Below are positions 36,082 to 49,846 of a stretch of 64,000 nt of DNA, piece after piece. A program made the translations under genes and the position numbers. The DNA is from Minisyncoccota bacterium. Its GTDB lineage: Bacteria; Patescibacteriota; Minisyncoccia; Phycocordibacterales; Phycocordibacteraceae. The notes below the pieces were generated by a model, which saw only the letters and a list, made by a program, of their open reading frames with translations, ran no database searches and was not told the origin of the DNA. How positions within the stretch are numbered: the first letter of the stretch is position 1; every line of letters starts with the position of its first letter. The stretch lies in NCBI GenBank assembly GCA_035547315.1, contig DASZVH010000004.1, positions 12,107-76,106 of the forward strand. Direction: 5' to 3'.

Positions 36082-37650
36082 ATGGAAGGCATACTCAACA
36101 TTGATCTGCTTTGGGTCGGACTCGCGGTAGCGGGGGCGGGCACGCTCGGCTTCACCATCTACTTTTCCGACCAGGAGAGCGCGACCGCGAAGGCGTTCCT
36201 CCTTTTCACTTCAGCAAGCATCTTCTGGAGTATCGCCAACTTCGCGAGCGCGCGCGTGAGCGACCCGACGGCCGTATTGTGGCTCATCCGGCTCGTTCTT
36301 TTCTGCGCCTCTTGGCACGCGTTCTCGTTCTTCCTCCTCGCGTATCAATTTCCCGAGCGTGCGGCACGGATCAGCAAGCGCCTCTTCTTCGCGCTTCTTT
36401 CTTGGACCGCGGTCGTCTCGATCGTCGTGCTTACGCCAGTCGTCTACGAGGCCGTCCTCGCCGTCTCGCCGTCCGTGAAAACGCAAACCGGCCCCGGCAT
36501 CGCTCTATTCGGCCTTACAGTCCTCTCGTATATCGGCGCTGGTCTTTATCAGCTCACGCGAAAATTCTTCCGCTCCGGCGGAGCCGAACGGCACCAGATG
36601 GAGGCGGTACTTACCGGCACTGCGCTTACGTTCGTATTCCTTATCGTCTTCGATTTCCTCTTTCCGGCGTTCTTCGACATTCCGACTCTGGTTCCCTATG
36701 GCGGGCTCTTCCTTCTCCCGTTCATCATGGGGGTTTCTTATGCCATCCTCCATTATCGGCTCTTCAATCTGCGGGTCGCGCTCTTCGGTCTCCTGACCTT
36801 CCTTCTTGCGACCGCGACGTTCTTCGACATCCTTCTCTCCGATACCGCCTGGTTGGTGCTCTATCGCGTCGTCGAGCTCGGGCTCGTCCTTACCGCCGGC
36901 ATCTGGCTTATCAAGAGCATGGTGCGCGAGTTCGAGCTCGAGCGAGAGCTCCAAGAGACCAACGCGCGGCAGGAGGGGCTTATCCACTTCATCGGGCATG
37001 AGGTGAAGGGCTTCCTCACCAAGGCGCAGGGCGTCTTCTCGCTCATGAGCGAGGGGGAGCTGGGGCCCGTGCCGGAGTCTATGCGTCCCTTCGTCGAGCG
37101 CGGGCTCGCGGATACCAAAGACGGCGTGGCGAGCGTCTCCGACATCCTCAAGGCGAGCAATTTGAAGAAGGGCACGGTGAATTATGAAAAAAAGCCCCTC
37201 GATCTCGCCGCACTCGTCAAAGAAACAGTAGAGAAAGAGAAGCCGACCGCAGAAAGGAAGAAGCTCGCGCTCCTCCTCGATATCGAGGGTGAAGGGTACC
37301 AGATGACCGGCGACGGCCCGCAAATAGCCGACCATGTGCTGCGGAATCTCATTGAGAACTCGATCAACTACACGCCCACAGGCTCGATCCACGTCTCGCT
37401 TAAGAAAGCGCCGGGTAAGTATGTCTTTGCGGTCTCGGACACCGGCATCGGTATAAGCGCGGAGGATAAAGCGCGGCTTTTCACCGAGGGCGGGCACGGC
37501 AAAGATTCGCAGAAGGTGAATGTCCACTCGACCGGCTACGGGCTCTTCATTGCCAAACAGATCGTCGAGGCGCACGGCGGCAGCATCTCCGCCTCATCCG
37601 AGGGCCCCGGCACGGGCTCGACCTTCACCGCCGAGTTCCCGGCGGGATAA
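36082..37650 (+). CDS. membrane sensor histidine kinase (7TM N-domain + HisKA + HATPase_c)
   Basis: H-box FIGHEVKG, N-box NLIENSINYT, G1 DTGIGI and G2 GYGLFIAKQ. No cognate response regulator is adjacent. Confidence 0.8.
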   Translation: MEGILNIDLLWVGLAVAGAGTLGFTIYFSDQESATAKAFLLFTSASIFWSIANFASARVSDPTAVLWLIRLVLFCASWHAFSFFLLAYQFPERAARISKRLFFALLSWTAVVSIVVLTPVVYEAVLAVSPSVKTQTGPGIALFGLTVLSYIGAGLYQLTRKFFRSGGAERHQMEAVLTGTALTFVFLIVFDFLFPAFFDIPTLVPYGGLFLLPFIMGVSYAILHYRLFNLRVALFGLLTFLLATATFFDILLSDTAWLVLYRVVELGLVLTAGIWLIKSMVREFELERELQETNARQEGLIHFIGHEVKGFLTKAQGVFSLMSEGELGPVPESMRPFVERGLADTKDGVASVSDILKASNLKKGTVNYEKKPLDLAALVKETVEKEKPTAERKKLALLLDIEGEGYQMTGDGPQIADHVLRNLIENSINYTPTGSIHVSLKKAPGKYVFAVSDTGIGISAEDKARLFTEGGHGKDSQKVNVHSTGYGLFIAKQIVEAHGGSISASSEGPGTGSTFTAEFPAG

Positions 37651-38994
37651 TCAGCCGAGGGCTCGTGCAAGCTCGGCAGGAGGGAGCTCTTTCTGCTCGC
37701 CAGTGGCAAGATCGCGCAGGACGACGACGCCTTTGGCGAAGTGCTCCTGCATCGCGATAAGCGCGTAGGGGAAGCCCTTTTTATTTGCGAAGGCGAGCTG
37801 CTTATCAAGCGGCTTCTCCTCGAGATAGATCTCGGCAGCGACCCCTGCGGCGCGCAACTCCTTTGCATAATTCAAATACTCCGCGAGGCGCTCGCGCTCT
37901 GCGGTGGTCACGAGTACTTTGGCGGGCGTCTGCGCCTTGGCCTCGACGATGCCGGCCTTGATAAGTCGGGCAAGGAGGCGGGAAACGCCTATGGAAATGC
38001 CGACGCCCGGGTACGCCTCTTTGGTGTAGGCGCTCGCGAGGCCATCGTAGCGGCCGCCCGAGGCGATCGAGCCAAGGTCAGGATGTTCATCGAGCGCAGT
38101 CTCGAAGACCGAACCGGTGTAGTAGGAGAGGCCGCGCGCGATCGAGAGGTCGATGGTGTAGCGCTCAGGCGGCACGCCCATGCTCTCTACGCCTTTGATG
38201 ACCTCCTTCAGCTCCGCAAGCCCTTCTTTGCCTTCGTCGTCGAGCCCGGCGCCTTCGAGGAAGGCGAGCGTTTCGACTGCCGAGCGCTTAGCAGGGAGAA
38301 ACTCGAGCAGCTCTTTTGCGCGCTCCTGCTGCATCCCGTGCGCGACAAGCGCGAGCGCGGTCTTCTCCTTGCCGGCCTTCTCCAAGCGGTCTATCGCGCG
38401 CATCAATTCCGGCATGGCGGCGTCTTCGCCGCCCATGTGGCGGATGATCGCCGCGAGCACCTTGCGGTTGTTGATGCGCACCGTGAAGGGGCCGAAGTCG
38501 AGCTCGGCGAAGATGCCGGCGATGACGGCGACCATCTCGGCGTCGTGGAGCAGCGAGAGCGCGCCGTGGCCGACCGCGTCGATGTCGGCCTGGAGGAACT
38601 CGCGATAGCGGCCGTCCTTCGCCCGCTCGCCGCGCAGCACCTTCCCGATGGCGGAGCGCCGGAAGGGGAAGGGGAGCTCGCGCGCGTGCGTCGCGACGTA
38701 TCGCGCCAAGGGGACGGTGTGGTCGAAGCGCAGCGCCAAGTCCTTTTCATCCGAGGCGCCTTCTTCCGGATTCAAGAGCCGGAGGCCGTAGATCTGATTA
38801 GCGATCTCGCCTTCGTTCTTCGCAGCCAAGACTTCGGGCCGCTCGACGAGCGGGGTCTCGAGCGGGGCGTAGCCGGCCGCCGCAAAATGCTTGCGGATGA
38901 CCGCGAGCATTCGCTCCTGCGCAATCGCCTCCGCCGGCCCCAGCGTGGGGAAGCCGCTTATGTCCTCGAGGAGGCGCTTAGGGAAATCAGCCAT
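37651..38994 (-). CDS. hisS: histidyl-tRNA synthetase
   Basis: Class II motifs including GGRYDGL. 447 aa. A TATAGT hexamer lies 9 nt upstream of the ATG. Confidence 0.9.
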   Translation of the reverse strand: MADFPKRLLEDISGFPTLGPAEAIAQERMLAVIRKHFAAAGYAPLETPLVERPEVLAAKNEGEIANQIYGLRLLNPEEGASDEKDLALRFDHTVPLARYVATHARELPFPFRRSAIGKVLRGERAKDGRYREFLQADIDAVGHGALSLLHDAEMVAVIAGIFAELDFGPFTVRINNRKVLAAIIRHMGGEDAAMPELMRAIDRLEKAGKEKTALALVAHGMQQERAKELLEFLPAKRSAVETLAFLEGAGLDDEGKEGLAELKEVIKGVESMGVPPERYTIDLSIARGLSYYTGSVFETALDEHPDLGSIASGGRYDGLASAYTKEAYPGVGISIGVSRLLARLIKAGIVEAKAQTPAKVLVTTAERERLAEYLNYAKELRAAGVAAEIYLEEKPLDKQLAFANKKGFPYALIAMQEHFAKGVVVLRDLATGEQKELPPAELARALG

Positions 38995-39096
38995 TGGTCT
39001 TTACTATAGCGTACGTTAGTCGGGGTATGGAGGCATACCCCTTCCTCGCTCGCTCACTTTGCAAAATCATGATAATTTTGCAAAGTTCACTCGCTC

Positions 39097-39170
39097 GTCG
39101 GGGTAGCTCAGTTGGTAAGAGCGTGGCATTCATAACGCCAAGGTCGTGGGTTCGACTCCCACCCTCGACA
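39097..39170 (+). tRNA. tRNA with CAT anticodon (elongator Met or Ile2)
   Basis: Cloverleaf: acceptor GTCGGGG/CCTCGAC, D-arm GCTCAGTTGGTAAGAGC, anticodon loop TTCATAA, T-loop TTCGACT. Overlaps a spurious track ORF. Confidence 0.7.
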
Positions 39171-39178
39171 CTGCAATT

Positions 39179-39363
39179 TTCCTCAGGATTTGGTAGGATG
39201 CGTTCACGCTTGCGGTAGTAAGCCCGCAGACGGGCTTGCTCCCGCTGCGTTCGGAAAAACCAGAAGCAAGCTTCTGATTTTCCTCACTTGCGGGAGTAAG
39301 TAGGCTTTCTCCCGCTGCGTTCGCTCGGAAAGAAAGAAAACGCCTTTCTTTCCTCACTCACTT
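39179..39363 (+). repeat. 2.5 tandem structured repeats, each ending in a copy of the tRNA-Asp 5' end
   Basis: Units are ~75 nt: CTCCCGCTGCGTTCG...(internal palindrome)...TTCCTCACT(CAC)TTGCGGGAGTA. The last unit runs directly into the tRNA-Asp acceptor stem. Confidence 0.6.
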
Positions 39364-39437
39364 GCGGGAGTAGCTCAATTGGTTAGAGCGCCGCCCTGTC
39401 ACGGCGGAGGTTGCGGGTTCAAGTCCCGTCTCTCGCG
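39364..39437 (+). tRNA. tRNA-Asp (GTC)
   Basis: Acceptor GCGGGAG, anticodon loop CTGTCAC, T-loop TTCAAGT and discriminator G. Confidence 0.85.
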
Positions 39438-39819
39438 CACCATAGGACGAATGGAGCGCAAAGCTTCATTTTGTCTTGCAGTTTCTTCGTTTATCTCCAG
39501 TTCTAACGAACGATACCGTTCTTCGATCGCGGGATAATCAGAAACCGTCTTCGTGTGCCAGTGCCTTTTCAATCAAGATTTTGACCCGCCGATCGTAATC
39601 CTTGGGAGGCTTCTTTTCCCGTCCAGTGGCTTGTCCGCGCATTACTGAGATTGTCTGTCATTCCTCGCCCTTAGGCAAACTCGCCCGGTTCGCGTAAAAA
39701 GCTAGCGCCAGCGCGAGTTTATGTTCAGGTCGCAGCTTTCCTCGACTTTTCGCCAAACTCGCGCCACCGACGAGCCGGTGCGACCTGGTGCGAGTAGGTT
39801 ACTGCACTGGTGCAGTAAA

Positions 39820-40179: not shown

Positions 40180-40746
40180 AATTGCGTGTTAGTGAGTAAA
40201 CACGGCGGGTACCACAAAACCCGCCACTAGGGTGGGGCTTGCGCCCCCATACCGGTTTCCCGATACGGCCAATCACGACGAGCCCTAATGACGGGTTTTC
40301 TGGTCGTGATTGGACTTCTGAACCATGCCAGCAACTCACGTCGCTGGTTTAGGCCCCGCTGCTTTCGCAGCTCTTTTATTCTACAGTGGTGGTTCCAGTC
40401 AAAGTGCCAGTATTGTCTTAAGGAAGGCCACCGAGTAATCGGCGGCCTTTATGCAACTTCGGCCATGCCGGTCCGGTACTATAAACATATGAATAAATTC
40501 ACTGACCTAGTGCTGATTATCGGCTTCTTAGCGGTCGACTTCCTCTTTTTCCATGACCTCTTTAAGGCGGGGGAGATAATTACCTTGCCGCAGTACCTTA
40601 CCGGCCTTCTCTCGATTATCGTGATCCTCCGCGCGCTCTGGTCGCTCTTTGGCGCTGAGTCCGCCGCGCGCCTCGCGTAACTCTTCCCCAACATCCGCTC
40701 ATAGCGCCCCGCGTGCGGGGCACTGCGAGCTATACTAGAGAGCACG

Positions 40747-49796: not shown

Positions 49797-49846
49797 GCTG
49801 TTTTATAGTATAGTGCACCCGCGCCACGCTCCTGCGTGGCGCACCT

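Follow-up and report, generated by a model that had tools for sequence, protein, structure and literature searches.

Why should the short spacer between two tRNA genes carry repeated copies of the 5' end of one of them? The question is raised by a 64,000-nucleotide stretch (the window, GC content 61%) of contig DASZVH010000004.1 from a Minisyncoccota bacterium. The spacer under study comprises 192 nucleotides (nt) from tRNA-Met(CAU) to tRNA-Asp(GUC). The gene adjoining the repeats is hisS (37651-38994, minus strand); a protein with exactly the sequence of its product is named 'histidine--tRNA ligase [Candidatus Paceibacterota bacterium]'. An earlier note on this DNA correctly described tandem units of about 75 nt with shared flanks but differing hairpins; it read them either as a structured pre-tRNA leader or as recombination scars or attachment remnants of a mobile element. 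We read the repeats as a conserved Paceibacteria tRNA leader module, present twice in tandem (as subtypes alpha and beta) before tRNA-Asp and a third time, in diverged form, before tRNA-Met. Comparison of sequences indicates that selection maintains the element, which keeps to the 5' end of certain tRNA genes and matches the acceptor sequence of each. A Logan contig, assembled independently, is identical to the window over 37038-39408; the repeats are therefore unlikely to be an assembly artefact of a single pipeline. In the source run, SRR12170514, an identical contig is present.

Anatomy of the repeats

Each unit before tRNA-Asp has the same order (Table 1): a copy of tRNA-Asp nt 1-9 that opens hairpin H1, the segment a' (CTCCCGC), a joining segment J1 (TGCGTTCG), a variable hairpin H2 and a second joining segment J2 (CTCACTT), which is followed by the next copy or by tRNA +1. 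The start-to-start spacing of the units is 78 and 74 nt. One shared flank, CTCACTTGCGGGAGTA, has exact copies at 39283-39298 and 39357-39372 and a copy of 81% identity at 39205-39220; the other, GGCTT(G/T)CTCCCGCTGCGTTCG, is present at 39233-39253 and 39303-39323. Between the flanks each unit has its own palindrome (39256-39281 and 39327-39353), and the last unit does end in the tRNA-Asp 5' end, its final GCGGGAGTA being nt 1-9 of tRNA-Asp(GTC) at 39364-39438. The 15-mer CTCCCGCTGCGTTCG occurs exactly twice in the 64 kb, both times here, and its other matches have three mismatches and occur at chance frequency. Tandem Repeats Finder reported no repeat in 38900-39600, because the unit interiors are too different and only the flanks are common.

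The segment a' is the exact complement of tRNA-Asp nt 1-7. The pairing of CTCCCGC with the downstream GCGGGAG, proposed from the first inspection, is borne out (39235-39245 with 39290-39300). What had been missed is that each tRNA 5' copy also pairs locally with the CTCCCGC that follows it (39212-39245 and 39290-39315). Since CTCCCGC complements both the preceding copy and the next GCGGGAG, a' has two mutually exclusive partners. Its pairs with the tRNA 5' strand are all Watson-Crick; the 3' strand of tRNA-Asp itself (CTCTCGC) has one G.U pair. The first copy, a0, is degenerate, while the first 9 nt of beta H1 (39290-39298) copy tRNA-Asp nt 1-9 exactly. The tRNA-Asp gene does not encode CCA.

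A TAGGAT hexamer (39194-39199), 12 nt upstream of the first partial copy, belongs to an extended -10-like motif that may act as the promoter of the module and its tRNA. At most tRNA-Asp loci with modules the motif (T)GGTAGGAT likewise stands upstream of the first module; other loci are designated here by L numbers, and those with the motif in this place are L002, L090, L096, L137, L145, L150 and L159. A simple sigma-70 scan called no promoter, the motif being without a -35 element. Neither ARAGORN nor the Rfam tRNA model called a tRNA or pseudogene inside 39172-39363, where the units keep nothing of the tRNA beyond nt 1-9 and the complement of nt 1-7. A search for intrinsic terminators gave one weak candidate (alpha H2, 6 pairs including 3 G-C), where chance alone predicts 1.0; its T-rich stretch is the 3' arm of H2, a hairpin that is AT-rich in low-GC relatives. 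Folding of 39205-39440 gave -104 kcal/mol (z = -5.4), a value that none of 200 shuffled sequences equalled.

Table 1 Features of the two tRNA genes and their leader modules, in window coordinates
Feature	Position	Strand	Basis and remarks
-10-like TACTAT for tRNA-Met	39002-39007	+	Read from sequence, putative; TACTATA conserved in L003, L085, L089
Diverged leader module of tRNA-Met	39019-39096	+	Direct and inverted repeats, fold; covariance model R1 matches 39009-39108
tRNA, CAU anticodon (Met, or Ile2 if modified)	39097-39171	+	ARAGORN, Rfam
Extended -10-like motif TGGTAGGAT for tRNA-Asp	39191-39199	+	Read from sequence; putative promoter
a0, degenerate copy GCGGTAGTA of tRNA-Asp nt 1-9 (GCGGGAGTA), 5' arm of alpha H1	39212-39220	+	81% copy; T5 variant also in L002
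H1 alpha, GCGGTAGTAAGCCCG caga CGGGCTTGCTCCCGC	39212-39245	+	Inverted repeat and minimum free energy fold; 15 pairs, 87% complementarity
a' alpha, CTCCCGC; partners upstream a0 (H1) or downstream GCGGGAG ('rod')	39239-39245	+	Inverted repeats, consensus fold
J1 alpha, TGCGTTCG, conserved joining segment	39246-39253	+	Near-invariant columns in alignment A1
H2 alpha, GGAAAAACCAGAAGC aa GCTTCTGATTTTCC	39253-39283	+	Inverted repeat and fold; H2 pairs covary across genomes (helices 4, 5)
J2 alpha, TCACTT, abuts G of next tRNA 5' copy	39284-39289	+	Sequence and alignment
H1 beta, GCGGGAGTAAG tagg CTTTCTCCCGC; a' at 39309-39315	39290-39315	+	Direct and inverted repeats
J1 beta, TGCGTTCGCTC, beta subtype with extra CTC	39316-39326	+	Subtype also in L090 unit 2, L137, L150 unit 2
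H2 beta, GGAAAGAAAG aaaacgc CTTTCTTTCC	39327-39353	+	Inverted repeat, 10/10 pairs
J2 beta, TCACTCACTT, ends at tRNA-Asp +1	39354-39363	+	Sequence and alignment
tRNA-Asp(GTC); nt 1-7 GCGGGAG, downstream partner of a'	39364-39438	+	ARAGORN; Rfam tRNA, 71.8 bits

A family before four tRNA species

The repeats were sought in relatives on contigs that encode HisS homologues, where the region was read directly; a HisS scan of genome contigs gave only Actinobacteria and archaea, and L005-L084 were left out as irrelevant. The relative L002 (HisS 86% identical to that of the window) has one unit before tRNA-Asp, alpha only, and L090 (66%) has two units in the same order as the window. Five relatives with HisS 66-79% identical (L003, L004, L085, L087 and L089) have no module before tRNA-Asp. 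Between the window and L002, the segment from a' through J2 is identical at 51/51 positions and tRNA-Asp at 75/75, against 80.4% for hisS DNA, 53% for the H1 apex and 42% for the spacer between promoter and a0. The changes in the alpha H1 apex are compensatory in both L002 (AGCGT..ACGCT) and L090 (AGCCT..AGGCT). In L090 tRNA-Asp starts with GCGGGGG, and the partial copy and its complements have changed in step (GCGGGGGTAAG-tagg-CTTTCCCCGC; CCCCCGC); the first internal palindrome differs in sequence but keeps its pairing, and the 14-mer GTAAGTAGGCTTTC of beta H1 is identical in unit 2. The order alpha then beta is common to the window, L090 (hisS DNA 68.7% identical) and L150, and L137 has beta only. 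The elements are thus not absent from all relatives, the outcome by which the earlier note would have had them dismissed, and structure and conservation are both present.

The distance to the -10-like motif differs in an informative way. In the module-less relatives L089 and L003, T(G/A)TAGGAT or TAAGAT is found 9 nt upstream of tRNA +1; in L002, L090 and the window it is the first partial copy that this motif precedes, by 9-12 nt. A unit thus behaves like an insertion of about 70 nt, with tRNA nt 1-9 directly repeated on either side. This 9-nt direct repeat and the precise absence of the insert in close relatives are compatible with an insertion-type origin.

The family extends well beyond the hisS locus. 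A metagenome search with the pattern CCCGCTGCGYTCG-N20-50-CRCTTGCGG returned 80 loci; about four fifths of the matches were chance occurrences in GC-rich coding DNA, and only those ending at tRNA +1 were kept. At fifteen loci the match stops exactly at +1 of tRNA-Asp(GTC) or tRNA-Gly(TCC). Modules beyond the reach of the pattern precede tRNA-Met in L144, L150 and L158 and tRNA-Thr in L144; in every case copy and complement match the tRNA concerned. In all, a module stands directly 5' of tRNA-Asp, -Gly, -Thr or -Met in about 18 further contigs with GC contents of 33-62%, and wherever placement was possible these contigs are from Paceibacteria. It always ends at tRNA +1 and lies on the tRNA strand, the fixed position and orientation of a cis-acting leader.

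The consensus reads a0 (tRNA nt 1-9) - AGC-AAA-GCT(T) - N - a' (complement of nt 1-7) - (T)GCGYTCG - H2 - CTCRCTT, then the tRNA. The short H1 hairpin is usually AAGC-AAA-GCTT, and H2 often shares the H1 core (TGTAAGY-aaa-RCTTCCA) with a conserved pyrimidine-pyrimidine mismatch. In subtype alpha J1 is TGCGYTCG; in subtype beta it is TGCGTTCGCTC, and the CTCACTT that ends J2 is preceded by CTCA or CG. Across the family a' tracks the tRNA: CTCCCGC with GCGGGAG, CCCCCGC with GCGGGGG, CACCCGC with GCGGGTG (Asp and Gly), and CACCGAC with GTCGGTG (Met). One tRNA-Gly locus has RNase Y as neighbour gene, with best named relatives in Candidatus Kaiserbacteria, Nomurabacteria and Paceibacterota. Orthologous tRNA-Gly loci fetched via RNase Y are patchy: L211, L212 and L213 have a module, and L215 and L216 are without one. 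In the former three, H1 is of a 'class II' type, a perfect inverted repeat of tRNA nt 1-9 plus TC/GA.

The diverged module before tRNA-Met of the window scores 28.3 bits (E = 3.9e-5) with covariance model R1. It opens with a copy of tRNA-Met nt 1-9 (GTCGGGGTA, 39019-39027). Its H1 (GGGGTATG gagg CATACCCC, 39022-39041) is of class II, the type seen in the tRNA-Gly modules of L211 and L213. A CT-rich linker (TTCCTCGCTCGCTC, 39042-39055) leads to H2, a 15-bp palindrome (39056-39086), and TCACTCGCTC (39087-39096) then abuts the tRNA. The remaining five of the seven tRNA genes in the window have no comparable module and have leaders of 10-30 nt.

The module appears to be an undescribed, conserved two-hairpin family before several tRNA genes of Paceibacteria (candidate phyla radiation). 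An Rfam 15 search of 38900-39600 with E up to 10 gave the two tRNAs and sub-threshold noise only, and a gathering-threshold scan of 20 module-bearing or orthologous loci gave tRNAs only. Viral contigs, phage records and plasmid records held no match, literature searches found no description of the module, and a paper on tRNA introns of Patescibacteria (PMC13011429) does not mention leaders. A covariance model search of about 220 kb (the 64-kb window and about 155 kb of other loci) found modules directly 5' of tRNAs only; since overlapping neighbours cause cmsearch to drop the second unit of an array, unit counts are from direct reading.

Several known classes were rejected on inspection. Hammerhead, hairpin, HDV-like and pistol ribozymes do not fit, the core motifs being absent and the junction having two helices only. 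The repeats are not identical, as CRISPR repeats would be; J1 is only vaguely boxA-like, which speaks against boxA/boxB antitermination; and a T-box was set aside on account of the gene class and the absence of specifier and T-box sequences. A replacement for RNase P was also rejected, the other tRNAs of the window having short, module-free leaders.

Pairing and covariation

Twenty-three modules were aligned, 20 of them collected by the search pattern. The RNAalifold consensus pairs a' with the downstream tRNA nt 1-7, enclosing H2, and adds pairs between J1 and J2 (the G and the T/C of J1 with the R and the C of J2). This is the fold that the earlier note had drawn around the internal hairpin, and covariation is present in it. 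The a'.a helix is 97.5% paired, and its column pair 43/106 is AU in 9 modules, UA in 8, CG in 3 and GC in 1. The Y of J1 and the R of J2 also covary (T-A 14, C-G 5, C.A 4, T.G 0). At the three pairs that were not forced by the pattern, unpaired cells number 3 in a'.a against 12 in a0.a', and the promoter-proximal a0 is often broken by bulges. In the model-based alignment 93.7% of cells are paired, as against 39-49% with partners slid by 1-3 columns, and compensatory changes are found in 19 of 23 pairs, a value reached by none of 500 shuffles, in an alignment that is model-fitted and partly pattern-collected.

Constrained folds of the H1 type (a' with a0) and of the rod type (a' with the downstream tRNA or tRNA copy) usually lie within about 5 kcal/mol of each other, with a maximum difference of 11.8. 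Each state is the minimum free energy fold in some modules; full rod pairing, in which all seven a' bases pair with the downstream tRNA copy, is so in 8 of 23. Both the a0.a' and the a'.a helix are conserved, although a0 equals a by construction, so that the two are not independent evidence.

Other features of these loci

In L090 (2534-2545), L150 (about 622-633), L158 (about 2702-2713) and L002 (about 2058-2069), a J2-like CCTCACTT or CCTCACTC stands directly before +1 of tRNA-Met or tRNA-Thr. It is present even where no full H1/H2 module is recognised, or where a long insertion interrupts the module (tRNA-Met of L158), and this short leader motif may have a role of its own.

The orientation of the tRNA genes varies among relatives, with hisS fixed in all of them: tRNA-Met is inverted in L002 and L004, tRNA-Asp in L085 and L086, and both are inverted, with their order swapped, in L087. 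A 10-nt inverted repeat in the window (GACACTGCAA at 39167-39176 and TTGCAGTTTC at 39476-39485, 90% complementary) brackets the modules and tRNA-Asp; it is probably due to chance, and is of note in view of the flipped genes. Contigs of several relatives end in or beside these tRNAs or modules (L003 1-76, L004 1-20, L159 2632-2676, L137 1725-1780). This suggests that partial tRNA copies and strong hairpins break short-read assemblies, a practical concern at such loci.

Large serine recombinase genes (Resolvase, Recombinase, Zn_ribbon_recom) lie downstream of tRNA-Gly(TCC) in L212 (6965-8428) and L213 (8258-9481). In L212 the gene abuts the tRNA 3' end and is followed by a RepSA/REP_ORF2-G2P-like gene; in L213 it lies about 290 nt beyond and is split into three open reading frames. 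These regions look like integrated elements at the 3' end that are unrelated to the 5' modules.

At the start of hisS, a CTATAG palindrome (38994-39010) provides TACTAT in the direction of tRNA-Met (plus strand) and, in that of hisS (minus strand), TATAGT only some 8 nt upstream of the hisS ATG (38994). The arrangement suggests overlapping divergent -10 elements and a (nearly) leaderless hisS mRNA. At this site, ACTATAGCG is conserved in L002 and L004. The genome also has a structured leader of another kind, that of tRNA-Gln (about 49804-49846), with TATAGTATAGT and a GC-rich hairpin (GCGCCACGC-tcct-GCGTGGCGC) but without a tRNA 5' copy. A LOOT RNA (Rfam RF03000; 81.5 bits against a gathering score of 46.4) lies on the minus strand at 40234-40355, some 800 nt beyond tRNA-Asp; in the close relative L002 the interval from tRNA-Asp to the tRNA-Thr pair does not include this segment.

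Function and origin

We propose that the module is a functional leader RNA, made from the sense strand, that acts on tRNA maturation or folding; we put the probability of this reading at about 45%. We infer that the module is transcribed, that it switches between its two folds and that it is linked to RNase P. The module would be co-transcribed with the tRNA from the extended -10 promoter a few nt upstream of a0. Pairing of a' with a0 would form an H1 of about 12 bp that resembles an acceptor/T-arm minihelix and leaves the tRNA free to fold. Pairing of a' with tRNA nt 1-7 would instead form a long irregular rod (a'.a, J1.J2 and H2), which would hold the 5' acceptor strand and the RNase P site (J2|G+1) beside a short hairpin stacking like a T stem. 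The 5' strand of tRNA-Asp does resemble a T stem (GCGGG). The leader would then be a tRNA-specific bistable clamp that gates or guides maturation of the 5' end and formation of the acceptor stem, and RNase P would release it as an H1-H2 hairpin RNA. The rod may present the site to RNase P, hide it, or simply chaperone the GC-rich 5' strand.

A bolder form of this proposal, which we rate as somewhat unlikely, makes the modules tRNA-specific leader riboregulators, acceptor-matched 'anti-acceptor' clamps that programme when and where a tRNA 5' end is made. Before the tRNA body folds, a built-in guide strand might offer the cleavage site to RNase P or to a nuclease specific for double strands; alternatively, the precursor might be kept inactive until a decoy strand releases it. 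Within what sequence analysis can support, the leader alternative is the half of the earlier interpretation that is favoured, as the structure recurs at a constant position, in many genomes and in front of four tRNA species.

Several observations weigh against the leader RNA. The search pattern itself imposed part of the J1 and J2 conservation and four of the a'.a pairs, and alignment A2 was fitted to the modelled structure, which inflates its paired percentage. The modelled pairs hold 6 G.U against 14 A.C, so the wobble signature of a sense-strand RNA is absent, and folding energies of sense and antisense strands are equal (Wilcoxon p = 0.36). As both tests are neutral, antisense folding or a DNA-level palindrome would also be compatible with the data. 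H1 would form first during transcription, and what would drive the RNA into the rod state is not evident. Finally, the module is absent from the close relatives L003, L004, L085, L087, L089 and L215 and from five of the seven tRNA genes of the window. Since close relatives do without it, the module is dispensable, which also fits a selfish or neutral insertion.

The main rival, which we consider unlikely, is a selfish mini-element targeted to tRNA genes. A unit of about 70 nt would insert after tRNA nt 9, bringing a replacement 5' end (a plus GTA) and its partner a', and the original 5' end of the host (a0) would be left by the promoter to decay; arrays would arise by repeated insertion or unequal crossing-over. 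The conserved hairpins would be sites for a recombinase or transposase acting on folded single strands, as for IS200/IS605-derived or REP-like elements. Such an insertion accounts for the decay of the upstream copy (in the window, L090, L150 and L159 the a0 next to the promoter is more degenerate than any other copy), for the promoter spacing at tRNA-Asp loci (the -10 is as far from a0 as it is from tRNA +1 in relatives without a module) and for the patchy presence and precise absence among close relatives. The flanking 9-nt repeat of tRNA nt 1-9 and the missing wobble signature also fit, and the core shared by H1 and H2 (GTAAGY-aaa-RCTTNC, with its conserved pyrimidine mismatch) recalls the paired end hairpins of single-strand transposons. 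It does not account for the lack of dispersed copies (none away from tRNA 5' ends in the 220 kb) or of a recombinase (no transposase or recombinase gene recurs beside the modules, whose neighbours differ by locus), nor for the antiquity of the alpha-beta array, which is orthologous at 69% hisS DNA identity and hence old and inherited, not recently mobile. Phage, plasmid and viral sequences were without a match, and because a' is tRNA-specific each retargeting would need a new guide. Like REP/BIME, MITEs and IS200/IS605-derived palindromes, the modules are short intergenic hairpin units, some in tandem, with paired similar hairpins and a conserved mismatch; unlike these (and unlike PATE) they are not dispersed, part of each is customised to the adjoining tRNA, and there is no associated transposase. 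When bounded by the direct repeats they have no terminal inverted repeats, the ends within the 9-nt repeat reading AGC... and ...CACTT; the inverted repeat a'/a takes in one copy of the duplicated target itself.

That the units are neutral debris without present function, left by tandem duplication and decay of tRNA-Asp or by an element that integrated at the tRNA gene and was excised, is strongly disfavoured and in our view very improbable. Partial tRNA copies beside a tRNA gene are a classic footprint of duplication or integration, a direct repeat of part of the tRNA (9-16 nt, (CTCACTT)GCGGGAGTA) does flank the insert beside an intact tRNA as at attachment-site duplications, and relatives manage without the module. 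However, only 65-70 nt lie between the repeats, with neither integrase nor cargo, and the interior is not unrelated sequence but is structured and homologous in the further contigs, at unrelated loci. The 51/51 identity with L002 contrasts with 80% in the neighbouring gene and 42-53% in adjacent spacers; pairs show compensatory changes in 19 of 23 cases; the same J1, H2 and J2 design recurs before four tRNA species over GC contents of 33-62%; and a', with its perfect Watson-Crick complementarity, does not copy the 3' strand of the tRNA itself. What is duplicated here is the 5' end of the tRNA (nt 1-9), whereas duplications made by integrases are usually of the 3' end, and the true integrated elements at the tRNA-Gly 3' end in L212 and L213, with their serine recombinases, look quite different from the modules. 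The scar or attachment-remnant alternative is therefore unsupported for the present element, although an insertion-type origin is still compatible with it.

Two further explanations are improbable. The modules might act as DNA: a regulator of tRNA transcription might bind them as operators, or they might be recombination sites tied to the flipping of individual tRNA genes. Short motifs (GTAAGC..GCTT, GCGYTCG, CTCRCTT) are highly conserved over the full range of GC contents, as protein-binding sites would be, the modules lie within a few nt of the promoter at tRNA-Asp and tRNA-Met loci, the orientation of these two genes differs in L002, L004, L085 and L087, and the neutral wobble and strand tests suit a DNA site. 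Set against this, H2 and the H1 apex change freely with pairing kept, the signature of a folded strand and not of a duplex operator; tRNA-Gly modules are some 40-80 nt from the promoter; the match of a' to tRNA nt 1-7 has no obvious meaning for an operator; and relatives with flipped tRNAs mostly have no modules. The other, also a long shot, is a source of small RNAs: RNase P would cut each CTT|G junction and free H1-J1-H2-J2 RNAs of 74-78 nt that act in trans, for example as decoys for an enzyme or toxin that binds acceptor stems. The unit spacing is tRNA-sized, internal H1s are preceded by CTCACTT as the tRNA is and share its first 9 nt, the length of H1 (7 + 5 pairs, one mismatch) equals the acceptor/T-stem stack, and the H2 apex TGTAAGTAAACTTCCA recurs in many genomes. 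Yet H1 has no T-loop and no 3' RCCA-like tail (J1 begins UGCG), CTCACTT is missing before the first H1 of an array, there is no evident trans target, and this explanation leaves unaccounted for why a' matches the tRNA better than it matches a0.

The leader RNA that we favour has partial parallels among known systems. A leader-bearing 5' strand with a complementary 3' strand on a short hairpin reportedly suffices to guide RNase P to the boundary of leader and helix. The rod fold would put a' and the AAGC/GCTT hairpin in the same arrangement around the real cleavage site, and the H1 of the module, a hairpin of about 12 bp, is of minihelix size. Unlike minihelix substrates and external guide sequences, the module has its guide strand in cis, upstream of the substrate and joined to the leader via H2, and has no RCCA tail or T-loop; the tRNA body is already a full substrate. 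With attenuators, riboswitch platforms and T-box leaders it would share a cis 5' leader at a fixed position, covariation, and one segment with two exclusive partners of similar predicted stability; it would differ in controlling a tRNA acceptor strand in place of a terminator or ribosome-binding site, and it has no recognisable ligand domain. T-box leaders differ further in standing before aminoacyl-tRNA synthetase genes and binding their tRNA in trans. As in permuted or split tRNA genes, mascRNA and mitochondrial tRNA punctuation, a strand like the 3' acceptor comes before the 5' acceptor strand, and processing may be signalled by a tRNA-like helix; the downstream tRNA is here complete and canonical, however, and the upstream piece, without D, anticodon and T arms, goes undetected by ARAGORN and the Rfam tRNA model.

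To our knowledge, bacterial tRNA 5' leaders are generally regarded as short, unstructured and unconserved. The module by contrast is long, modular, conserved over large distances and customised to its own tRNA, and as its hosts have minimal genomes any retained non-coding element is notable. If it acts as RNA, it would provide gene-by-gene cis control of tRNA maturation or folding, with a natural internal guide or decoy for the acceptor stem; should the riboregulator proposal hold, it would be the first dedicated cis-regulatory RNA for tRNA maturation, retargetable by changing 7 nt. A mini-insertion aimed at tRNA genes, the alternative case, would be a mobile element of an unusual kind, one that mends the gene it enters. 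In both cases the modules constitute a well-defined, testable family, whose members a covariance model retrieves before four tRNA species.

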